This document shows positions 23,403 to 62,955 of a DNA stretch of 64,000 nucleotides, piece after piece. A program made the position numbers and the translations under genes. The DNA lies in the NCBI GenBank assembly GCA_039588275.1, contig JBDHAC010000006.1, positions 1 through 64,000 on the forward strand, written 5' to 3'. This DNA is from Gemmatimonadota bacterium. Its GTDB lineage: Bacteria > Gemmatimonadota > Gemmatimonadetes > Palauibacterales > Palauibacteraceae. Position 1 is the first letter of the stretch; the number at the start of each line of letters is the position of its first letter. The notes beneath the pieces were generated by a model. The model was not told where the DNA came from and did not search any database. It was given only the letters and a program-made list of their open reading frames with translations.

Positions 23403-24436
23403 GCGTCCGACCCTGGGGCGCGCTCCGTGACCCCGAGCCCGGGCTCGTCGCCGAGTACGATGCGCCCCCTCTCGAGATGCGGGCCGCTGAACGGATCGTC
23501 CTTCAGCAGCTCCGCGCCGTCGAGGTCGGCGTAGTCCACAAGTGGGGCGAGGTGCGCCGACGCCGCGATCCCCAACGTCGTTTCCAGCATGCACCCGAGC
23601 ATCACCTCGAGCCCGCACGCTCGGGCGGTGTGGATCATCCGGAGCGCTTCGCGTGGTCCACCGCACTTGGAGAGCTTGATGTTGATCCCGTCCACTCGAT
23701 CGGACAGGCCCGGGATGTCGGACGCGACCAGGCAGGATTCGTCCGCGATTATCGGCAGCGCCGAGCGCGCGTGCACGGAAGCGAGTCCCTCGTGGTCCTC
23801 GGGCGGAACAGGCTGCTCCACGAACTCGACGCCGAAATCGCGCAGCATGGCGATCCCCTCGAGAGCCTCGCGCGGCGTCCAGCCCGCGTTCGCGTCCGCC
23901 CGTAGGACCACCTCAGGGGCGACGTCCCGGACGGCGCGTAGTATGGGCTCGTCGGCGTCGGTTCCGACCTTGATCTTCAGGATCGGGTACTCGGCCGCCT
24001 CGCGGACCTTGGCTGCCATTACCTCGGGCTCGTCGATTCCGATCGTGAACGAGCTCAGCGGCGCCGTGGTGGGGTCCAGCCCCCAAAGCCGCCACAGGGG
24101 CTGGCCGAGACGCTTGCCGATCCAGTCGTACAGCGCCGCCGAGACCGCCGCGTGCGCGGAGCCGTTCTTGGGAAGGAGCGCGCGCAGGTCGCGCTCGATC
24201 GTGTCGAGACCGAAGGGGTCCTCGACCGCCGCCAGGCTCGGGCGAAGCGTCTGGAGCGCCTGATCGACGGTGTCCGCGGACTCCCCGTAGTAGGAGGAGG
24301 GATCCGCCTCACCCCACCCCTCGATGCCCTCCAGCTCGATTCGGAGCCACACGACCGTGTCTTTGGTCCGGACGCCGCGACTGATTCGAAACGGGTGCTT
24401 GGTGTGGACCTCCAGCTTCTCCCAGGAGACCCTCAA
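23399..24436 (-). CDS. Dipeptide epimerase (L-Ala-D/L-Glu epimerase, enolase superfamily)
   Basis: KIKVG, DANAGW, EQP, DES, NIKLSKCGG, GCMLE, DLDG; TTG start chosen, uncertain. Confidence 0.92.
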   Translation of the reverse strand: MRVSWEKLEVHTKHPFRISRGVRTKDTVVWLRIELEGIEGWGEADPSSYYGESADTVDQALQTLRPSLAAVEDPFGLDTIERDLRALLPKNGSAHAAVSAALYDWIGKRLGQPLWRLWGLDPTTAPLSSFTIGIDEPEVMAAKVREAAEYPILKIKVGTDADEPILRAVRDVAPEVVLRADANAGWTPREALEGIAMLRDFGVEFVEQPVPPEDHEGLASVHARSALPIIADESCLVASDIPGLSDRVDGINIKLSKCGGPREALRMIHTARACGLEVMLGCMLETTLGIAASAHLAPLVDYADLDGAELLKDDPFSGPHLERGRIVLGDEPGLGVTERAPGSDA

Positions 24437-55712: not shown

Positions 55713-56669
55713 TTACCGGCGCCAGGTCCACTCCGGCGTCCGGTACTTGTCCGCGACCAGCCTGCGGGCTTCCGCCTCGAGCGCGCGGTCGTGCACCGCG
55801 TCGAGCGCAGCCCGCTCCGGTCGGCAACCGAACTCTTCGCTGAAGGCGTCCGTGAGCGTCCGGACGAGATCGACGGGTGCCGGCAGCCCGCGCACCAGCT
55901 CCGAAAGCCCGATCGCGGCCCGCTCCGCGCGATCGGCATCCCGGGCGTGAAGGTCTCCCCGTCCCTGCTCGTTCAGCAGCAGGATCGACCCATGTTGGAG
56001 AAGGGCGCCTCCGTGCCTCCATTGGGCGCTCCCCACGAGCTTGCGGCCCCGCGCGGTGACCTCACCGGGTGCCGGCGCCTGGAAGCAGGGCTGCGGTCCG
56101 AGGGCTCCGTGGGACGCGTTTCCCGGGCGAGGTCCGCGGAGGGGCGAGCCGCGGGCCCGGCCCTCCGACGCGAAACCCGGCTCTACATCGAAGGCAGGGT
56201 CATCGAAACCGGGGTGTGGGTCGAGCGCTGCGCCGAGCGAGGTGAGTCCGCGGCGGAGGGCCCGGTTGATCCGCTGGTACAGCCTGCGGGGGCCGCCCCA
56301 TAGCCGGTCGGGAACCGTCACGCTGTAGGTCAGCTCACGGCTGTGGTACACGGAGCGTCCACCGGTCGGGCGCCGTACCACCGTTTCCCCAGCCTGAAGC
56401 TCTTCACGCAACCTGCCCTGGACGCGGTCCGGTGTCGATTGGTTGCGGCCGAGAGACAGACAGCCCGGTTCCCACGCGTAGAAGCGCAGCGTCGCCGCAC
56501 CGGCGCGCGCGCCGGCCATCAGCGCTTCATCCACCGCCATGTTCCAGGCTCCGTCGCCCGGTCCGTCGATGCGAAGGTCGAAGCGCGTGGGAACCGCGGC
56601 GGGATCGGTGAGTGTGCGGTGCGTGGGTCGACCGTGTGTCGCGGCTAGTCGCCGTCCGGGAAGCTCCAC
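55713..56669 (-). CDS. Lipoate-protein ligase/octanoyltransferase (LipM/LplA family)
   Basis: WNMAVDEAL, RRPTGGRSVYH, RKLVGSAQ, LQHGSI; start uncertain. Confidence 0.92.
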   Translation of the reverse strand: MELPGRRLAATHGRPTHRTLTDPAAVPTRFDLRIDGPGDGAWNMAVDEALMAGARAGAATLRFYAWEPGCLSLGRNQSTPDRVQGRLREELQAGETVVRRPTGGRSVYHSRELTYSVTVPDRLWGGPRRLYQRINRALRRGLTSLGAALDPHPGFDDPAFDVEPGFASEGRARGSPLRGPRPGNASHGALGPQPCFQAPAPGEVTARGRKLVGSAQWRHGGALLQHGSILLLNEQGRGDLHARDADRAERAAIGLSELVRGLPAPVDLVRTLTDAFSEEFGCRPERAALDAVHDRALEAEARRLVADKYRTPEWTWRR

Positions 56670-58129
56670 CGCACGTCCAGGTGACGGCCGGCACCCCCTT
56701 CGTCGAGACGGCGTACGGGGGTCTCGTGCGGCGCTTCGGTCACCAGCTCGGGGGTCTCGGCGGCCTCGCGCGCGATGGCCAGCAACGCGTCGGCGAACCG
56801 GTCCAGCTCTTCCTTCGTCTCGGTCTCCGTCGGCTCGGTCATGAGCGCCTCCGAGACCGTGAGCGGGAAGTAGACGGTGGGGGCATGGAAACCGTAGTCG
56901 AGGAGCCGCTTGGCCACATCCAGCGTCTTGACCCCGTATTCCTTCTTCAGGCGATCGCCCGTGTACACCGACTCGTGCATCCCGCGCCCGTAGGGCAGGG
57001 GGTAGGTGTCGACCAATCGTGCGCTCAGGTACGCGTTGTTGAGCACGGCCGCGTCGGCGGTGGCGCGGATCCCCTCGACACCCAGCATCCGGATGTAGGT
57101 GTAGGCGCGCACGAGCACGCCGAAGTTGCCGTTGAATCCGTGCACCTTCCCGATCGATTCCGGTGCGTCCCAGTCCCACGCGAAGCGGTCCTCGAGGCTC
57201 ACGACTCGCGGGATCGGGAGGAACTTCGTGAGGTGATCCTTGACCGCGACCGGTCCCGAGCCGGGTCCGCCGCCGCCATGCGGCGTGCTGAAGGTCTTGT
57301 GCAGGTTGAAGTGCACGATGTCGTAGCCCGTGTCGCCCGGGCGGGTGACGCCCATCATCGCGTTCAGGTTGGCGCCGTCCATGTACATCAACCCACCCGC
57401 CTCGTGCACGCGCCGACTGATCTCCTCCACCTCCGACTCGAAGCGGCCGAGCGTGTTGGGATTGGTGAGCATCATCCCGGCGGTCTCGTCGGACAGGGCG
57501 GCCGAAAGCGATTCCAGGTCCGTTCGCCCCGCGTCGTTGGAAGCGATCTCGACGACCTCGAATCCCGCCAGCGCGCAGGTGGCCGGGTTTGTCCCGTGCG
57601 CCGAGTCGGGGACCAGGACCTTGCGCCGCCCACCCTCGCCGTTGGCGCGGTGATACGCGCGCATCAGCATGACCCCCGTCATCTCGCCCTGTGCCCCCGC
57701 CGCGGGCTGTAGCGTCACGGCATCCATGCCGGAGATCTCGCGCAGGATCTCGGCGAGCTCGTACATGAGCCGCAGGGCGCCCTGCGTGGCCTCCGAAGGC
57801 GTCAGCGGGTGGAGACCCGCGAACAGGGGCAACCGGGCCGTCGCCTCGTTCACCTTCGGGTTGTACTTCATCGTGCACGAACCGAGCGGGTAGAGCGCCC
57901 GATCCACGTGGTGGTTCTTGAGCGAGAGCTCGGTGTAATGGCGCACCACCTCGTGCTCCGGGATCTCCGGCAGGCGCGGCGGCGTCGAGCGGAGCAGCTC
58001 GGGGGGCAACAGCTCCTCCAGGGGCCGCGTCGGGACATCCGGCGTAGGCACCGACGTGCCTCGTCGTCCGGCGCGAGATCTCTCGAACACGGTGGGCGTG
58101 TGCTCGCCCTTGAACGGGAATCGGCTCAT
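56645..58129 (-). CDS. gcvPB: Glycine dehydrogenase subunit 2
   Basis: LGSCTMKYN, NLHKTFSTPHGGGGPG. Confidence 0.97.
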   Translation of the reverse strand: MSRFPFKGEHTPTVFERSRAGRRGTSVPTPDVPTRPLEELLPPELLRSTPPRLPEIPEHEVVRHYTELSLKNHHVDRALYPLGSCTMKYNPKVNEATARLPLFAGLHPLTPSEATQGALRLMYELAEILREISGMDAVTLQPAAGAQGEMTGVMLMRAYHRANGEGGRRKVLVPDSAHGTNPATCALAGFEVVEIASNDAGRTDLESLSAALSDETAGMMLTNPNTLGRFESEVEEISRRVHEAGGLMYMDGANLNAMMGVTRPGDTGYDIVHFNLHKTFSTPHGGGGPGSGPVAVKDHLTKFLPIPRVVSLEDRFAWDWDAPESIGKVHGFNGNFGVLVRAYTYIRMLGVEGIRATADAAVLNNAYLSARLVDTYPLPYGRGMHESVYTGDRLKKEYGVKTLDVAKRLLDYGFHAPTVYFPLTVSEALMTEPTETETKEELDRFADALLAIAREAAETPELVTEAPHETPVRRLDEGGAGRHLDVRWSFPDGD

Positions 58130-58196
58130 CGCCGGGTGTCCGCGTCAGTGGCAGACCGCTCGAGAGCTCGGGCGGGCCGGCGGCGCATGGAGTGGC

Positions 58197-58889
58197 TCAA
58201 AACTCGTACGCTCCCCCCGCTGCGAGCGGGACGACCTCTGCGGTTGATCCCACGCGGCCTCGGAACGCCTCCGGATCCTGCTCGATCATATCGAAGGTGT
58301 CGTAATGGATCGGGATGACCACCTCCGGGCGGATCATCTCGACCGCCCGCGCCGCATCCTCCGGACCCATCGTGAAGTTGTCACCGATCGGCAGCAGAGC
58401 CACATCGACCTGCCCCGCGAGCAGCTGCATGTCCGTCATCAGCGCCGTGTCGCCGGCATGGTAGATGCGCTTTCCATCCACCGACAGGAGGATGCCCGCC
58501 GGCAAAGTCGTGTAGCCCTCCGCTCCCTCCGCATCGATCTTCCCGCCGTGCAGCGCGGCGGTCAGCTTCACCCGTCCGAAGGGGAAATCGAACCCGCCAC
58601 CGATGTGGAGCGGGTGGGCGTTTTCCACGCCACGCACAGATTGCGCGTAGCTCACGATCTCGAACGTGGCGATCAGCATGGCGCCCGTCGCCGAGAGCAG
58701 GTCCCACGCGTCCGCGACGTGATCGAAGTGCCCGTGCGTCAGGAGCAGATAGTCGAGTCGGTCGTGGAAGTGCTCCGGTCCGACGTCGGCTTTCGGATTC
58801 TCGCTCAGGAAGGGATCGATCAGCAGCCGCGTGCCGTCGGCGGCCGTGATCTCGGTGCATGCGTGCCCGTGGAAGATCAGTCTACCCAT
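58197..58889 (-). CDS. Metallo-beta-lactamase-fold metal-dependent hydrolase (UPF0173-like)
   Basis: THGHFDH, YHAGDT, LPIGDNFTMG, PIHY. Confidence 0.93.
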   Translation of the reverse strand: MGRLIFHGHACTEITAADGTRLLIDPFLSENPKADVGPEHFHDRLDYLLLTHGHFDHVADAWDLLSATGAMLIATFEIVSYAQSVRGVENAHPLHIGGGFDFPFGRVKLTAALHGGKIDAEGAEGYTTLPAGILLSVDGKRIYHAGDTALMTDMQLLAGQVDVALLPIGDNFTMGPEDAARAVEMIRPEVVIPIHYDTFDMIEQDPEAFRGRVGSTAEVVPLAAGGAYEF

Positions 58890-58905
58890 CTCTCATATCC
58901 TCCGG

Positions 58906-60252
58906 TCACCCCCCCGATGCTTCGGAGAGGAAGGCCACCAGGCGGTCGATATCCTCTTTGCGGTGCTTCTCCGTGAAGGCGAGCAGGAGCCCGTCCTCCA
59001 CGCCCAGGTCGGGCATCCTCGACAGGTAAACCCCCGCGAGGAGTCCTTCTTTCAATCCGTCCCGGACCACGTCCTGCCCGGGGCGCCCGGTCTTAATCAC
59101 GAACTCCCGGAAGAAGGGAGCCTCGGGGAATACGGGCTCGAGCCCGGCATCGGTGAGAGCCTCGTGCGCGTAGTGGGCGTTCTGCACCGAAACGAGCGCG
59201 ACTTCGCGAAGCCCATCGCGACCGAGCAGCGCGAGGTGTATCGTCGCGGCCAGCGCGTTAAGCCCCTGGTTCGTGCAGATGTTGCTCGTCGCCTTCTCGC
59301 GGCGGATCTGCTGCTCACGGGTCTGTAGGGTCAGCACGTAGCCGCGCCGGCCCTCGACGTCGGTCGTCGCGCCCACGATGCGTCCGGGCATCTTCCGGAT
59401 CAGCTTCCCGGTGGCGGCGAACAACCCCACCACCGGCCCGCCGAAGTTGGGCGCGTTCCCGAACGGCTGCCCCTCGGCCGCCACCAGGTCGGCTCCGCAC
59501 TCCCCGGGGGTCCTCAACAGGGCGAGGCTGAGAGGATCGGCCACCACGACGATCACGAGGGCACCGTGCTCGTGCGCCGCGGCCGCGAGCGGCTCCACAT
59601 CCTCGATCACGCCGTAGAAGTTCGGATTTTGGACGATCAGAGCGGCCGTCTCATCGTCGATCGCCTCGGCCACCGAGGCCGCGTCGACTCGCCCGTCAGA
59701 GCCGATCGGTACCCGGACGACCTCCATTTCCTGGCCGGCCAGGTAGGTGCGCAACACCCGCCGGTAGTGCTTGTGCAGCCCGCCTGCCGCCACCACGCGG
59801 TTCCGGCGAGTTGCCGACAGCGCCACGAGTACCGCTTCGGCCGCCGCCGAAGCGCCGTCGTACATGGATGCGTTCGCCACCTCCATCCCGGTGAGCTCGC
59901 ACACCATGGTCTGAAACTCGTAGATCGACTGCAGCGTGCCCTGGGCCACTTCGGGCTGGTAGGGCGTGTACGCAGTGTAGAACTCGCTCCGTCGGATCAG
60001 ATGGTCGACGGCGGCCGGGACGTGATGGTCGTAGATGCCGGCGCCGGCGAAGCTCAACAGGGGGTGGTTCTCGGAAGCGTACGAATCGAGCAGCCGTACC
60101 GCCTCCGCCTCGGAGAGCGCCGACGGCATGTTCAGCGGCTCGCTGAGGCGGATATCGGCCGGGATGTCCGAGTACAGATCGTCTACGCTCGAAACGCCCG
60201 CGGCAGCGAGCATCTCGGCGCGATCGGCGTCGCTGTGGGGAACGAACGACAT
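58906..60252 (-). CDS. gcvPA: Glycine dehydrogenase subunit 1
   Basis: EFYTAYTPYQPE, NASMYDG, IRREKATSNICTN. Confidence 0.97.
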   Translation of the reverse strand: MSFVPHSDADRAEMLAAAGVSSVDDLYSDIPADIRLSEPLNMPSALSEAEAVRLLDSYASENHPLLSFAGAGIYDHHVPAAVDHLIRRSEFYTAYTPYQPEVAQGTLQSIYEFQTMVCELTGMEVANASMYDGASAAAEAVLVALSATRRNRVVAAGGLHKHYRRVLRTYLAGQEMEVVRVPIGSDGRVDAASVAEAIDDETAALIVQNPNFYGVIEDVEPLAAAAHEHGALVIVVVADPLSLALLRTPGECGADLVAAEGQPFGNAPNFGGPVVGLFAATGKLIRKMPGRIVGATTDVEGRRGYVLTLQTREQQIRREKATSNICTNQGLNALAATIHLALLGRDGLREVALVSVQNAHYAHEALTDAGLEPVFPEAPFFREFVIKTGRPGQDVVRDGLKEGLLAGVYLSRMPDLGVEDGLLLAFTEKHRKEDIDRLVAFLSEASGG

Positions 60253-60386
60253 TTACGTTTCTCTAGCAGGCCGCTGACGGCCCGCATCTGTAGGAGCCCG
60301 GGGGCTTCGCCACCGCCGGCAGCGAAACCGAGGAGGCCGGTGCGAGCGGGAGTCCGCGCCGGACGCGGGGCTCCGGTTCGCTTGGC

Positions 60387-60785
60387 TCAGGCCTCCTCGT
60401 CCCCGATGTGTTTGCCGTAATCTTCTGCCGAGAGGAGTTCATCCAGCTGTGTGGCATCGTCCACGCGCAGCCGGATCATCCACCCCTCGCCGTACGGGTC
60501 CGTGTTGACGAGGGCCGGATCGTCTTCGAGCGCGGCGTTGATCTCGACGATCTCGCCGGCCAACGGGCTGTAGAGCTCCGAGACCGCCTTGACGGCCTCG
60601 ATCGTTCCGAACGAGTCCATGCGGGCGTACCGGTCACCTGACTCCGGGAGCTCGACATACACGACATCCCCGAGCTCTCCCTGCGCATAGTCGGTGATTC
60701 CGACGAGCACCACACCCTCTTCGTCGGTCTCGCGAACGTACTCGTGCTCCTCGGTATACTTCAGGCTGCTCGGGATTTCGGACAT
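60387..60785 (-). CDS. gcvH: Glycine cleavage system H protein
   Basis: GITDYAQ.LGD, IEAVKAVSELYSP, DPYGEGW. Confidence 0.97.
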   Translation of the reverse strand: MSEIPSSLKYTEEHEYVRETDEEGVVLVGITDYAQGELGDVVYVELPESGDRYARMDSFGTIEAVKAVSELYSPLAGEIVEINAALEDDPALVNTDPYGEGWMIRLRVDDATQLDELLSAEDYGKHIGDEEA

Positions 60786-61000: not shown

Positions 61001-61705
61001 TCAGCTCTCGGTGCCCGGGTCCCCTGCCTGGAGCCGAGCGCGGGCCTGCCGCTCGGCCTTGAGCCTCTTGCGTGCCTGCCGATCGGTCTCGCCGGAGAGT
61101 CGTTCCTTGATGTCCACCCCGGCCATCATCGCGAAGCCGTTCACCTTGATGACCGGTGCGTCAGGGTTGGCGGGCCGGCTCGGCTCCTCGGCCCCGAACC
61201 CGCCCATGATCGCCACTCCGCTGGACTCGACCCGCACGCCGGGCGGGACGATGATATCGACACCGCCCATCAACGAGATCACGGTCACCCGGGTGACGGG
61301 TGAGGCAAAATCGGCGTCGCGGAAGTCGAGCTCGGCGCCACCCATGATCGCGAGCACGGTGAGCTGCTTGGGCGGCGTCCACATCCCCTTCCGCTCTACT
61401 CCCCCCATGACCGCGACGAGGAAGTCGCGCTCGCTGACGGGGAGCGTCGGATCTACGACGACCGGAGGAACGGCGGGATGCAGCTCGGACTTGGCGGGAG
61501 GCGCGCCCGGCTCGACCAGCGCGGGGAGGTCCGACTCGAGCGCCACGAGCTCCGTCTTCTCGCGCGCCGCGTAGGCGAGGTCCAGACGGCGTTCGAAGTC
61601 ATCCACGCCGAGGTGATCGCGCGCGAAATGCGTGCACAGCCGCTTGACGACCCGCTCTCGCTCCTGAGGCGTGATCGGCTGGGCCGGAAGATGGTCGTCC
61701 GTCAT
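61001..61705 (-). CDS. DUF1707 (SHOCT-like) + LiaF-like domain protein
   Basis: ERERVV.RL...G.DDFERR...A; MGGAELDF, MGGVDIIVP. Confidence 0.85.
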   Translation of the reverse strand: MTDDHLPAQPITPQERERVVKRLCTHFARDHLGVDDFERRLDLAYAAREKTELVALESDLPALVEPGAPPAKSELHPAVPPVVVDPTLPVSERDFLVAVMGGVERKGMWTPPKQLTVLAIMGGAELDFRDADFASPVTRVTVISLMGGVDIIVPPGVRVESSGVAIMGGFGAEEPSRPANPDAPVIKVNGFAMMAGVDIKERLSGETDRQARKRLKAERQARARLQAGDPGTES

Positions 61706-61811: not shown

Positions 61812-61840
61812 TTGCCCGGGAGGCGACCGGGCTCCAGAAT
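61812..61840 (+). promoter_or_regulatory. Candidate sigma-70 promoter
   Basis: TTGCCC-N17-CAGAAT. Confidence 0.45.
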
Positions 61841-61878
61841 ACGCGTCATACTACTGGCGCCCTATCGTGAAACCTTGT

Positions 61879-62052
61879 GAAAGGAGGTGATCCAGTGTCT
61901 GATGGGAGTAGACCGGGTCTAACTCGACACGGGCAAGCGATCGCCTCAGCGCAGGAGTAGCACACCGGACTCGGGAAAGTTGCGTTGAGTTGACCACACG
62001 CCGACCTGATCAGGAGCGAGCCCCGGCTGGGCATCGCGTCGAGTTAGGTCCG
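61879..62052 (+). ncRNA. Candidate structured RNA/leader with extended Shine-Dalgarno and 21-codon ORF
   Basis: GAAAGGAGGTGATCCAG; stem 61914-61931/62035-62052; inner stems; no family recognised. Confidence 0.55.
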
Positions 62053-62151
62053 AACTGAACACGACGGCCGCAGGCGCGACACGAGCCTGCGGCCGTCGTG
62101 TATTCGATATCCAGCGGAGCCGTGGTCGAGACCGCGGAAGGTTCAGGGTAC

Positions 62152-62955
62152 ATGCCTCGCTTCAGCAAATACACCGGCGCGGGGAACGACTTCGCCCTCG
62201 TGCGCGCGGAGGAGGTGGGTATGGGCGATCCCTCGGGCCTGTCTCGCAGGATCTGCCCCCGGGAAACCGGTGTCGGCGTCGACGGCTTGATTCTCGTCCG
62301 CAGCCTGTCCGACGACCACATTCGATTGCGCTTCTTCAACCCCGACGGGTCCGAGTTCGGGACGTGCGGCAACGGCAGTCGGTGTGCGGCCCGGTACGCC
62401 GTGGAACGAGGCCTGGTGCCGGAGCCCGAACTGACGCTCGTGACGGACGACGGTGAGATCGATGCGCGCGTCGGGGAGGAGGTCGTCGCGCTCGACTACC
62501 GCATCGAAGCCGTGCTCGAGCGTGAGGTCCGGGTAGAGGTCGCGGGCTCCGGCCGGAAAGGGTGGCTGGTGCAGATCGGCACGCCCCATCTCGTGGTCCT
62601 GCTCGACTCCGTCGAGCTCCCGGACTTCGACTCCGCCTGTCGGCCGATCCGGTCCCACGCGGAGCTGGGCTCAGAGGGGGCCAACGTCGACCTGGTCGCC
62701 GCCACCGGTACCGATTCGGTCTCGATCCGCACGTTCGAACGGGGGGTCGAGGGCGAGACCCTGGCCTGTGGTAGCGGCGCAATGGCTACCGCGCTCGCGC
62801 TCCGAGCGGCCGGTCTGTCGAACAAGCGGCTCACCCTCGAGACGCGGAGCGGGGCCGCGCTCACCGTCGAGCTGCGCGACCGCGAATCGCTCATCCGGCT
62901 CTCCGGACCCGCACGACACGTGTTCGACGGCGTCTACCCCGACACCGCCGAGTGA
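62152..62955 (+). CDS. dapF: Diaminopimelate epimerase
   Basis: KYTGAGNDF, NPDGS...CGNG, GTPH, FERGVEGETLACGSG. Confidence 0.96.
   Translation: MPRFSKYTGAGNDFALVRAEEVGMGDPSGLSRRICPRETGVGVDGLILVRSLSDDHIRLRFFNPDGSEFGTCGNGSRCAARYAVERGLVPEPELTLVTDDGEIDARVGEEVVALDYRIEAVLEREVRVEVAGSGRKGWLVQIGTPHLVVLLDSVELPDFDSACRPIRSHAELGSEGANVDLVAATGTDSVSIRTFERGVEGETLACGSGAMATALALRAAGLSNKRLTLETRSGAALTVELRDRESLIRLSGPARHVFDGVYPDTAE

Follow-up and report, generated by a model that had tools for sequence, protein, structure and literature searches.

A mini-mRNA-like element with an extended 16S rRNA tail complement in Gemmatimonadota, probably a version of the rre mini-messages in a new phylum

The closest described relatives of the locus studied here are the rre genes. 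Hahn et al. 2016 (PMC5711450) presented rreB of the Bradyrhizobiaceae and rreR of the Rhodobacterales as mini-mRNAs with an extended Shine-Dalgarno (SD) sequence, and the sections of their paper used here name rre genes in Alphaproteobacteria only. According to these sections, the 17-nt match of rreB to the 16S tail ends in the G of its GTG start codon, and the RNA co-sediments with the 30S and not the 50S subunit in gradients, for which 5' seed bases are required. It is weakly translated, and changing its start codon to a stop codon raises its stability from 10 to 37 min. Overexpression of rreB by 20-fold left growth unchanged, ribosomes far outnumber the RNA, and its function is called elusive. 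The same sections stress that the RreB and RreR peptides are conserved within their clades, and report that the synthetic peptides are unstructured. In a partly consulted source on S. aureus, extended SD helices close to the start codon are described as supporting initiation.

A second relative is the Rfam family CC2171 (RF01867), filed by Rfam as a non-coding sRNA. It corresponds to CCNA_R0051 / CCNA_03965 of Caulobacter, which is listed as translated in the supplements of Schrader et al. 2014 (PMC4117421). In Dataset S1 of that paper CCNA_03965 has similar RNA levels in rich and minimal medium but ribosome profiling values of 0 and 2,049 RPKM, respectively, a contrast that may reflect real medium-dependent translation or an artefact. 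To judge from an uncultured Caulobacter locus (L188), the CTG annotated as its start seems to share the frame of the GTG that follows the 16S-tail complement and to precede this GTG by six codons. In Table 1 of PMC6237742, CCNA_R0051 rises 4.4-fold, non-specifically, in a 240-min DNA-damage experiment. The excerpts on CC2171 available to us also mention Northern detection in Methylorubrum, a G1 peak of expression and a structure update in Rfam 15. In the literature searched (most subscription papers lie outside it), we found no follow-up on rre function and no report from Gemmatimonadota.

The element described here lies on the forward strand of a 64,000-nucleotide stretch of Gemmatimonadota DNA, which was analysed as a whole and is called the window. 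Its features are collected in Table 1, and the RNA measures about 250 bases. The original prediction took it for an unrecognised structured RNA that matches neither tmRNA, SRP, RNase P, 6S RNA nor a riboswitch. Indeed, in Rfam searches nothing in the window reaches the gathering cut-off, these classes included; ARAGORN calls no tmRNA there, and the genome has one tmRNA outside the window. The word unrecognised applies at that level only, as the rre class is in print and CC2171 shares the 16S-tail complement, hereafter the head. ARAGORN also calls a tRNA-Ser with the unusual anticodon ACT at 24235-24324 (-), which may be a false call. We consider the element likely to be a stand-alone folded RNA; because its frame is under selection, mini-mRNA is a more fitting name for it than ncRNA.

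Table 1. Features of the element and its neighbours, in positions of the window.
Feature	Coordinates	Strand	Basis or remark
Sigma-70-like promoter, TTGCCC-N17-CAGAAT	61812..61840 (61812-17/61835-40)	+	Sequence; conserved position in homologs
Candidate transcription start	near 61847	+	Placed from the promoter-like site
Conserved GCCC near 5' end	61859..61862	+	Invariant in 19/19 aligned rows; possible partner GGGC 61931-34
Head, 17-nt complement of 16S 3' end	61879..61895	+	Core 61882-92; predicted unpaired toehold near 61880-83
Micro-ORF, 21 codons, GTG start, TAG stop	61895..61960	+	Sequence; frameshifted at codon 7 compared with rest of phylum
GGG-AGUA segment, possible loop-E-like extension of long stem	61904..61910	+	GTA invariant in 19/19 rows
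Long closing stem, 5' strand	61914..61931	+	Core 61917-28
Anti-head within ORF	61937..61947	+	Alternative partners: head (61884-92) or 62030-37
Inner hairpin, variable domain	61945..61989 (61945-53/61981-89)	+	68% paired over 19 rows; predicted in rod fold
3' strand: anti-anti-head 62030-37 and closing stem 62038-52	62030..62052	+	RNAalifold consensus, covariation
Terminator-like hairpin, 17 bp	62059..62101	+	Covariation; U-tract weak here, stronger in many relatives
dapF, neighbour outside the element	62152..62955	+	PF01678, E 4.5e-41
Divergent DUF1707 gene, neighbour	61001..61705	-	PF08044, E 6.4e-11

The head is the exact complement (17/17) of the 3' end of the genome's own 16S rRNA, in line with the complement to the conserved 16S 3' end that had been predicted. 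The 17-mer is found twice in the 4.1-Mb genome, in the element and opposite the 16S 3' end, as its reverse complement (contig C3). Its predicted duplex with the last 13 bases of the tail (-25.0 kcal/mol) is stronger than that of every site before the 3,938 long open frames, shadow frames included, the best of which reaches -21.7. An 11-mer core of the head is invariant in the 19-row alignment of homologs; the last G of the 17-mer, which is the first base of the start codon, is variable among them. The start is placed 13 nt from AGGAGG in 243/245 copies, a distance that the search patterns themselves fix. As a marker the head is not diagnostic by itself: inspected by eye, the 27 viral matches are mostly ordinary phage genes with 64-102 codons. 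In three viral contigs (L200, L213 and L220) the head precedes a 10-codon frame, directly behind which come another strong SD and a long gene, possibly a translational-coupling or standby device in phages. On a Streptomyces chromosome (L186) a 51-codon Cys/Ser/Thr-rich peptide that resembles a RiPP precursor has the head as its SD, and a similar gene follows.

As far as the published sections describe rreB and rreR, the element shares with them the 17-nt complement of the 16S end including the GTG's first base, the short ORF, neighbour genes that differ between clades, and a hairpin, here predicted and conserved, that would hide the head except for a few 5' seed bases. Both rre genes are orphan transcripts with a promoter and a terminator, to which a conserved promoter-like site and a covarying hairpin correspond here. 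The element differs from them in its phylum, its length (about 250 compared with 165 nt), its number of codons (21 compared with 14/18), the TTG starts in most of the phylum and the genus-wide frameshift, and the covarying alternative fold reported below is undescribed for rreB in those sections. Its peptide is unrelated to the 14- and 18-residue types of RreB and RreR, which sets it apart from their orthologs. With CC2171 it shares a head identical over 22 nt of the consensus, a rod-like body under a long-range stem and a terminator hairpin; the distance from the start to the closing stem is about 7 nt in Alphaproteobacteria and about 16-20 nt in the present element. The CC2171 model scores 27 bits at the element (E about 0.001), compared with a gathering cut-off of 75 bits, and among 20 varied loci it is the sole Rfam family found at the element, above the cut-off in three. 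A body model built without the head recovered 10/10 held-out long copies of Gemmatimonadota and none of the 46 alphaproteobacterial-type loci, 16 ATG-type elements or 8 short copies; only the head is therefore shared. Judged from its sequence, the element would work like rreB and rreR and bears their hallmark, and it is neither a member of CC2171 nor an ortholog of rreB or rreR.

Two other known kinds of RNA are comparable in layout. The mRNAs of type I toxin-antitoxin systems (hok, tisB, aapA) have a masked SD, long-range pairing and a small ORF; these traits are alike here, but the peptides are neither hydrophobic nor conserved. In ribosome-dependent attenuator leaders a short ORF overlaps alternative helices upstream of a terminator, as it does here; the helices of the element, however, are predicted to gate the RNA's own ribosome site and not the terminator, and the downstream gene varies.

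Analysis of the folding showed that the + strand of the element folds better than 200/200 shuffles (z -5.7; the - strand gives z -4.1), which is partly due to the 17-bp hairpin at 62059-62101. RNAalifold yields a rod fold made of a closing stem (61917-28/62038-49) and a helix between the anti-head and the 3' strand (61937-45/62030-37). The closing stem had been predicted as 18 bp; it is a covarying long stem, with 17/18 pairs and one A-C mismatch in the reference RNA and a conserved core of 12 pairs in which 96.5% of cells are paired and seven pairs show compensatory changes. The anti-head helix is 96.7% paired, with A-U to G-C changes in six rows. Together the rod helices are 97% paired and their compensatory changes were not reached by any shuffle, a test that kinship may inflate. 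The terminator-like hairpin has 10 consensus pairs, 98.3% paired, seven of them with compensatory changes. This hairpin and the internal anti-head (61939-47) were both absent from the original prediction.

The anti-head is also conserved against the head, with 99.4% of cells paired in the 19-row alignment and wobble changes only. In 58 copies in which the motif was found allowing at most three mismatches, 406/406 cells of the head/anti-head pairs are retained, and four copies of one family display a matched change of head and anti-head, maybe from one evolutionary event. The head pairs better with its own body than the shuffle mean in 18/18 own-order and 19/20 other-family copies, and in 79/100 alphaproteobacterial-type copies (mean z -1.1). 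It is predicted to be paired to the interior of the ORF in 13/17 own-order copies folded to the stop codon and in 4/17 folded at full length; the corresponding counts are 20/20 and 10/20 in other families, and 57/97 and 52/97, a small drop, in Alphaproteobacteria. The anti-head can thus mask the ribosome site or pair downstream, which predicts two folds, and in these models the conserved crossing helices are better read as two alternative folds than as one pseudoknot.

The pseudoknot originally proposed did not survive comparison with homologs, as crossing 8-bp helices are present in 4/19 of them and in 129/760 shuffles, the level expected by chance. Its first helix, the inner hairpin of Table 1, is partly conserved; the second consists of 4+4 pairs around a 1x2 loop and is 43-47% paired over the 19 homologs. 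The perfect palindrome at 62005-14 is present in the reference and, in the alignment, is not conserved outside the genus. A decoy helix between the palindrome region and the 3' strand was rejected (p of at most 0.1 in 6/19 rows only). The GGG-AGUA segment, which may be a loop-E-like extension of the long stem, has a 3' partner that is only partly conserved. A better pseudoknot candidate, on sequence grounds, is possibly the 4-bp pairing of GCCC with GGGC that would cross the long stem. GCCC is present in 54/58 copies bearing GGGC and in 15/187 without it, a count confounded by kinship, and no covariation was found for this pairing. Short variants of one genus (g34; L155-L161 and L163-L166) measure about 120 nt and have a frame of 11 codons; they retain the head, the anti-head and the downstream competitor strand, with neither GCCC nor GGGC present.

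We lean, with some reserve, to the reading that the element is a stand-alone rre-type mini-mRNA acting as a ribosome-operated RNA switch, its peptide probably being a by-product. This proposal builds on the conservation, in our alignments, of the promoter-like site, the head, the start position, the short frame, the long stem, the anti-head and the terminator hairpin; 30S binding, weak translation and start-codon-dependent decay are borrowed from rreB alone. The nascent RNA would mask its own ribosome site through the anti-head. A 30S subunit would then dock on the extended 16S-tail match, invading via free seed bases used as a toehold; in the masked fold of the reference RNA about four bases on the 5' side of the head are predicted to stay free, and the tail, whose predicted pairing with the head (-25.0 kcal/mol) is stronger than that of the anti-head (-16.0), would win the competition. 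After slow initiation at the weak GTG start, the ribosome would translate through the anti-head and terminate inside the structure, and the RNA could flip between the masked and the open rod fold. Afterwards it would refold or be degraded, so that translation sets its turnover, and the purpose may be to gauge or briefly hold free 30S subunits. The conservation of both helix sets favours such a switch, as does the predicted gap of 6.4 kcal/mol between the masked (-121.3) and the rod fold (-114.9) of the reference RNA. Against it, the masked fold of this RNA is predicted best at all lengths past 61950, the full length included, and the anti-head signal is weaker in Alphaproteobacteria. The originally suggested ribosome-capturing ncRNA comes close, as the relative rreB co-sediments with 30S (PMC5711450). 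The unchanged growth under rreB overexpression argues against bulk sequestration of ribosomes.

The micro-ORF bears most directly on whether the peptide matters. The GTG frame of 21 codons is present as predicted, and copies start with GTG, TTG or ATG, TTG prevailing in most of the Gemmatimonadota; among the single-mismatch matches of the phylum, 57/60 change GTG to TTG and none gives ATG, CTG or a non-start codon. A stop codon within 10-30 codons is found in 242/245 non-redundant copies, compared with 110/245 in frame +1, the first count being slightly inflated since the loci judged by eye to be ordinary genes and left out included frames of 51 and 58 codons. Duplicates, truncated loci, two unpublished loci and viral loci were also left out, and frame +2 is uninformative as a control because the head itself places a stop there. 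The frames span 11-31 codons without a common peptide sequence between clades. In 57/58 copies an internal motif, whose offset is 31, 34 or 37 nt, lies in a single reading frame; the genus of the source genome is the one exception. In all three genomes of this genus one base is missing at codon 7 and codons 7-21 are rewritten, and the shifted frame terminates at a different TAG at nearly the same position; one RNA-library contig (depth 3.2) reads TGA where this TAG stands.

Since the frameshift rewrites codons 7-21 and yet ends at a nearby stop, it looks, from the sequence comparisons, as if translation is selected and the peptide apparently not. That the frame is retained in the other 57 copies is also what a conserved peptide would give, and this counts against a switch with a by-product peptide. 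The rival reading is a plain small-protein gene whose output the long SD, the weak start and the masking hairpin keep very low, with the peptide as its relevant product. We consider this rather unlikely. It agrees with the motif frame being kept across 3-nt indels, with Ser at codon 2 showing some synonymous variation (partly fixed by the search pattern), and with the clade-wise conservation of RreB and RreR in the sections of PMC5711450 used here. It is opposed by the departing peptide of the source genus, by the lack of common sequence between clades and by the unstructured synthetic RreB and RreR peptides in the same sections. Changes in the ORF motif also oppose it: they fall on codon positions 1/2/3 in the ratio 10/14/7, with no synonymous bias, mostly on positions 1-2 with base pairing retained.

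The spread of the element was examined in several genome sets. A DNA search matched 27/41 related genomes, and after three head-less matches (G010, G035 and G036) were dropped the element was present in 19/24 same-family and 4/16 same-order genomes. An 18-nt pattern with one mismatch matched 79/301 genomes of the phylum (the unpublished G096 included), nearly always once, and its reversed control nine. A looser head pattern matched 85/151 genomes of the phylum, but its reversed control also matched many and it was left out of the prevalence. In GTDB contigs we estimate the exact 20-nt head to occur in about 3,500 stretches; by their titles, the 120 matches listed are almost all alphaproteobacterial, and 21/201 genomes of that class carry it. 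In Gammaproteobacteria the head matched 9/251 genomes (the unpublished G375 included); of the eight matches read, two look like real elements and six lie in or before ordinary genes. Besides the one Streptomyces, the head was not found in the 200 genomes of Actinomycetota searched. A metagenome scan for ATG and TTG forms gave an estimate of about 660 stretches, and many loci among L227-L346 start with ATG, span 18-30 codons and share the rod-plus-terminator layout. In a gammaproteobacterial record titled SAR92 cluster bacterium (G332; L190/L142) a terminator-like hairpin comes about 20 nt behind the head and GTG-TCT, the frame has no stop ahead of it and a tRNA gene adjoins, possibly a minimal or non-stop version. 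At L243:1-141 (-) the head is followed by sequence that continues into its own perfect inverted copy, probably an artefact of assembly.

This patchy spread is a difficulty for a second alternative, that of a 30S quality-control or storage RNA: its head would sit over the free tail of the 16S rRNA, test-driving or parking newly matured or idle small subunits, and the short frame would permit termination and recycling. The tail segment complementary to the invariant head core is presumably the binding segment of the maturation GTPase Era, which would suit such a role. So would the presence of rreB on 30S and not 50S (PMC5711450) and the non-specific 4.4-fold rise of CCNA_R0051 after DNA damage (PMC6237742), in the parts of both sources used here. 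The lack of a growth effect on overexpression and the large excess of ribosomes over the RNA (PMC5711450, same sections) speak against it as well, and we hold this role to be improbable.

The element could also be a decoy, titrating small RNAs or proteins whose targets are SD or anti-SD sequences. CCUCCU-type small RNAs are known from Alphaproteobacteria, and the AGGAGG exposed in the rod fold would presumably pair with them. A decoy, however, would need neither the fixed start spacing (itself set by the search patterns) nor interchangeable start codons or an early in-frame stop, and we think it very improbable.

The element has the outline of an independent unit. The promoter-like site lies where it had been predicted, and an equivalent site, with a TTG-type -35 and a (T/C)ANNNT -10 element placed 35-55 nt before AGGAGG, is present in 30/49 homologs; a simple scanner calls neither promoter nor terminator here, and both rest on conservation. 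Four RNA libraries, from three studies, contain contigs covering the element at an identity of at least 90%. Three of the contigs are 179-199 nt long and span about 61870-62060, and the fourth, of 647 nt, extends past both ends; the short ones are a weak hint of a discrete transcript, as contigs cannot prove transcription or its ends. The sequencing runs were searched as contigs only, with at most 10% of words matched, and the contig cover over 18 kb consists mostly of short pieces from other organisms, so that absent cover of the flanks is uninformative. Two roles raised in the original prediction, a type I toxin mRNA and a leader that couples translation to dapF-mutY, are largely refuted and hardly credible now, and so is an attenuator of these genes: dapF does lie 50 nt downstream on the same strand in the source genome, and SD masking with 5'-3' pairing resembles type I toxin messages, but the covarying terminator-like hairpin intervenes, the dapF linkage does not hold (7/50 loci, 7/23 own-order and 0/27 other-family), several loci have a convergent gene, and the peptides are not hydrophobic (hydropathy median -0.26 and 95th percentile 0.70 over the copies, polar in the source), with no shared runs of one amino acid found among those compared. 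Divergent from the element lie gcvH, gcvPA-like and gcvPB-like genes at 56645-60785 (-); gcvH is upstream in 14/23 own-order loci and is commoner there than dapF downstream. For GcvH, the closest hits that bear a name belong to Gemmatimonadota.

The rre genes were described in 2016, in Alphaproteobacteria. The element is probably a version of these published, unexplained mini-messages in a new phylum. Because the same head carries unrelated bodies in distant phyla, a conserved ribosome-level role is suggested. We tentatively raise the broader idea, possible but doubtful at this stage, that rre-type genes are bistable RNAs across phyla in which the 16S tail would displace the anti-head and one round of translation would reset the fold, gauging or licensing those 30S subunits whose 16S end is mature and free; the genus in which the peptide is rewritten would then be a natural experiment for its dispensability. 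What the source copy newly contributes is this frameshifted genus and a covarying two-fold design. They suggest specific mutants that would separate the peptide from the act of translation and so make the question of function testable, for which Caulobacter is a tractable host.
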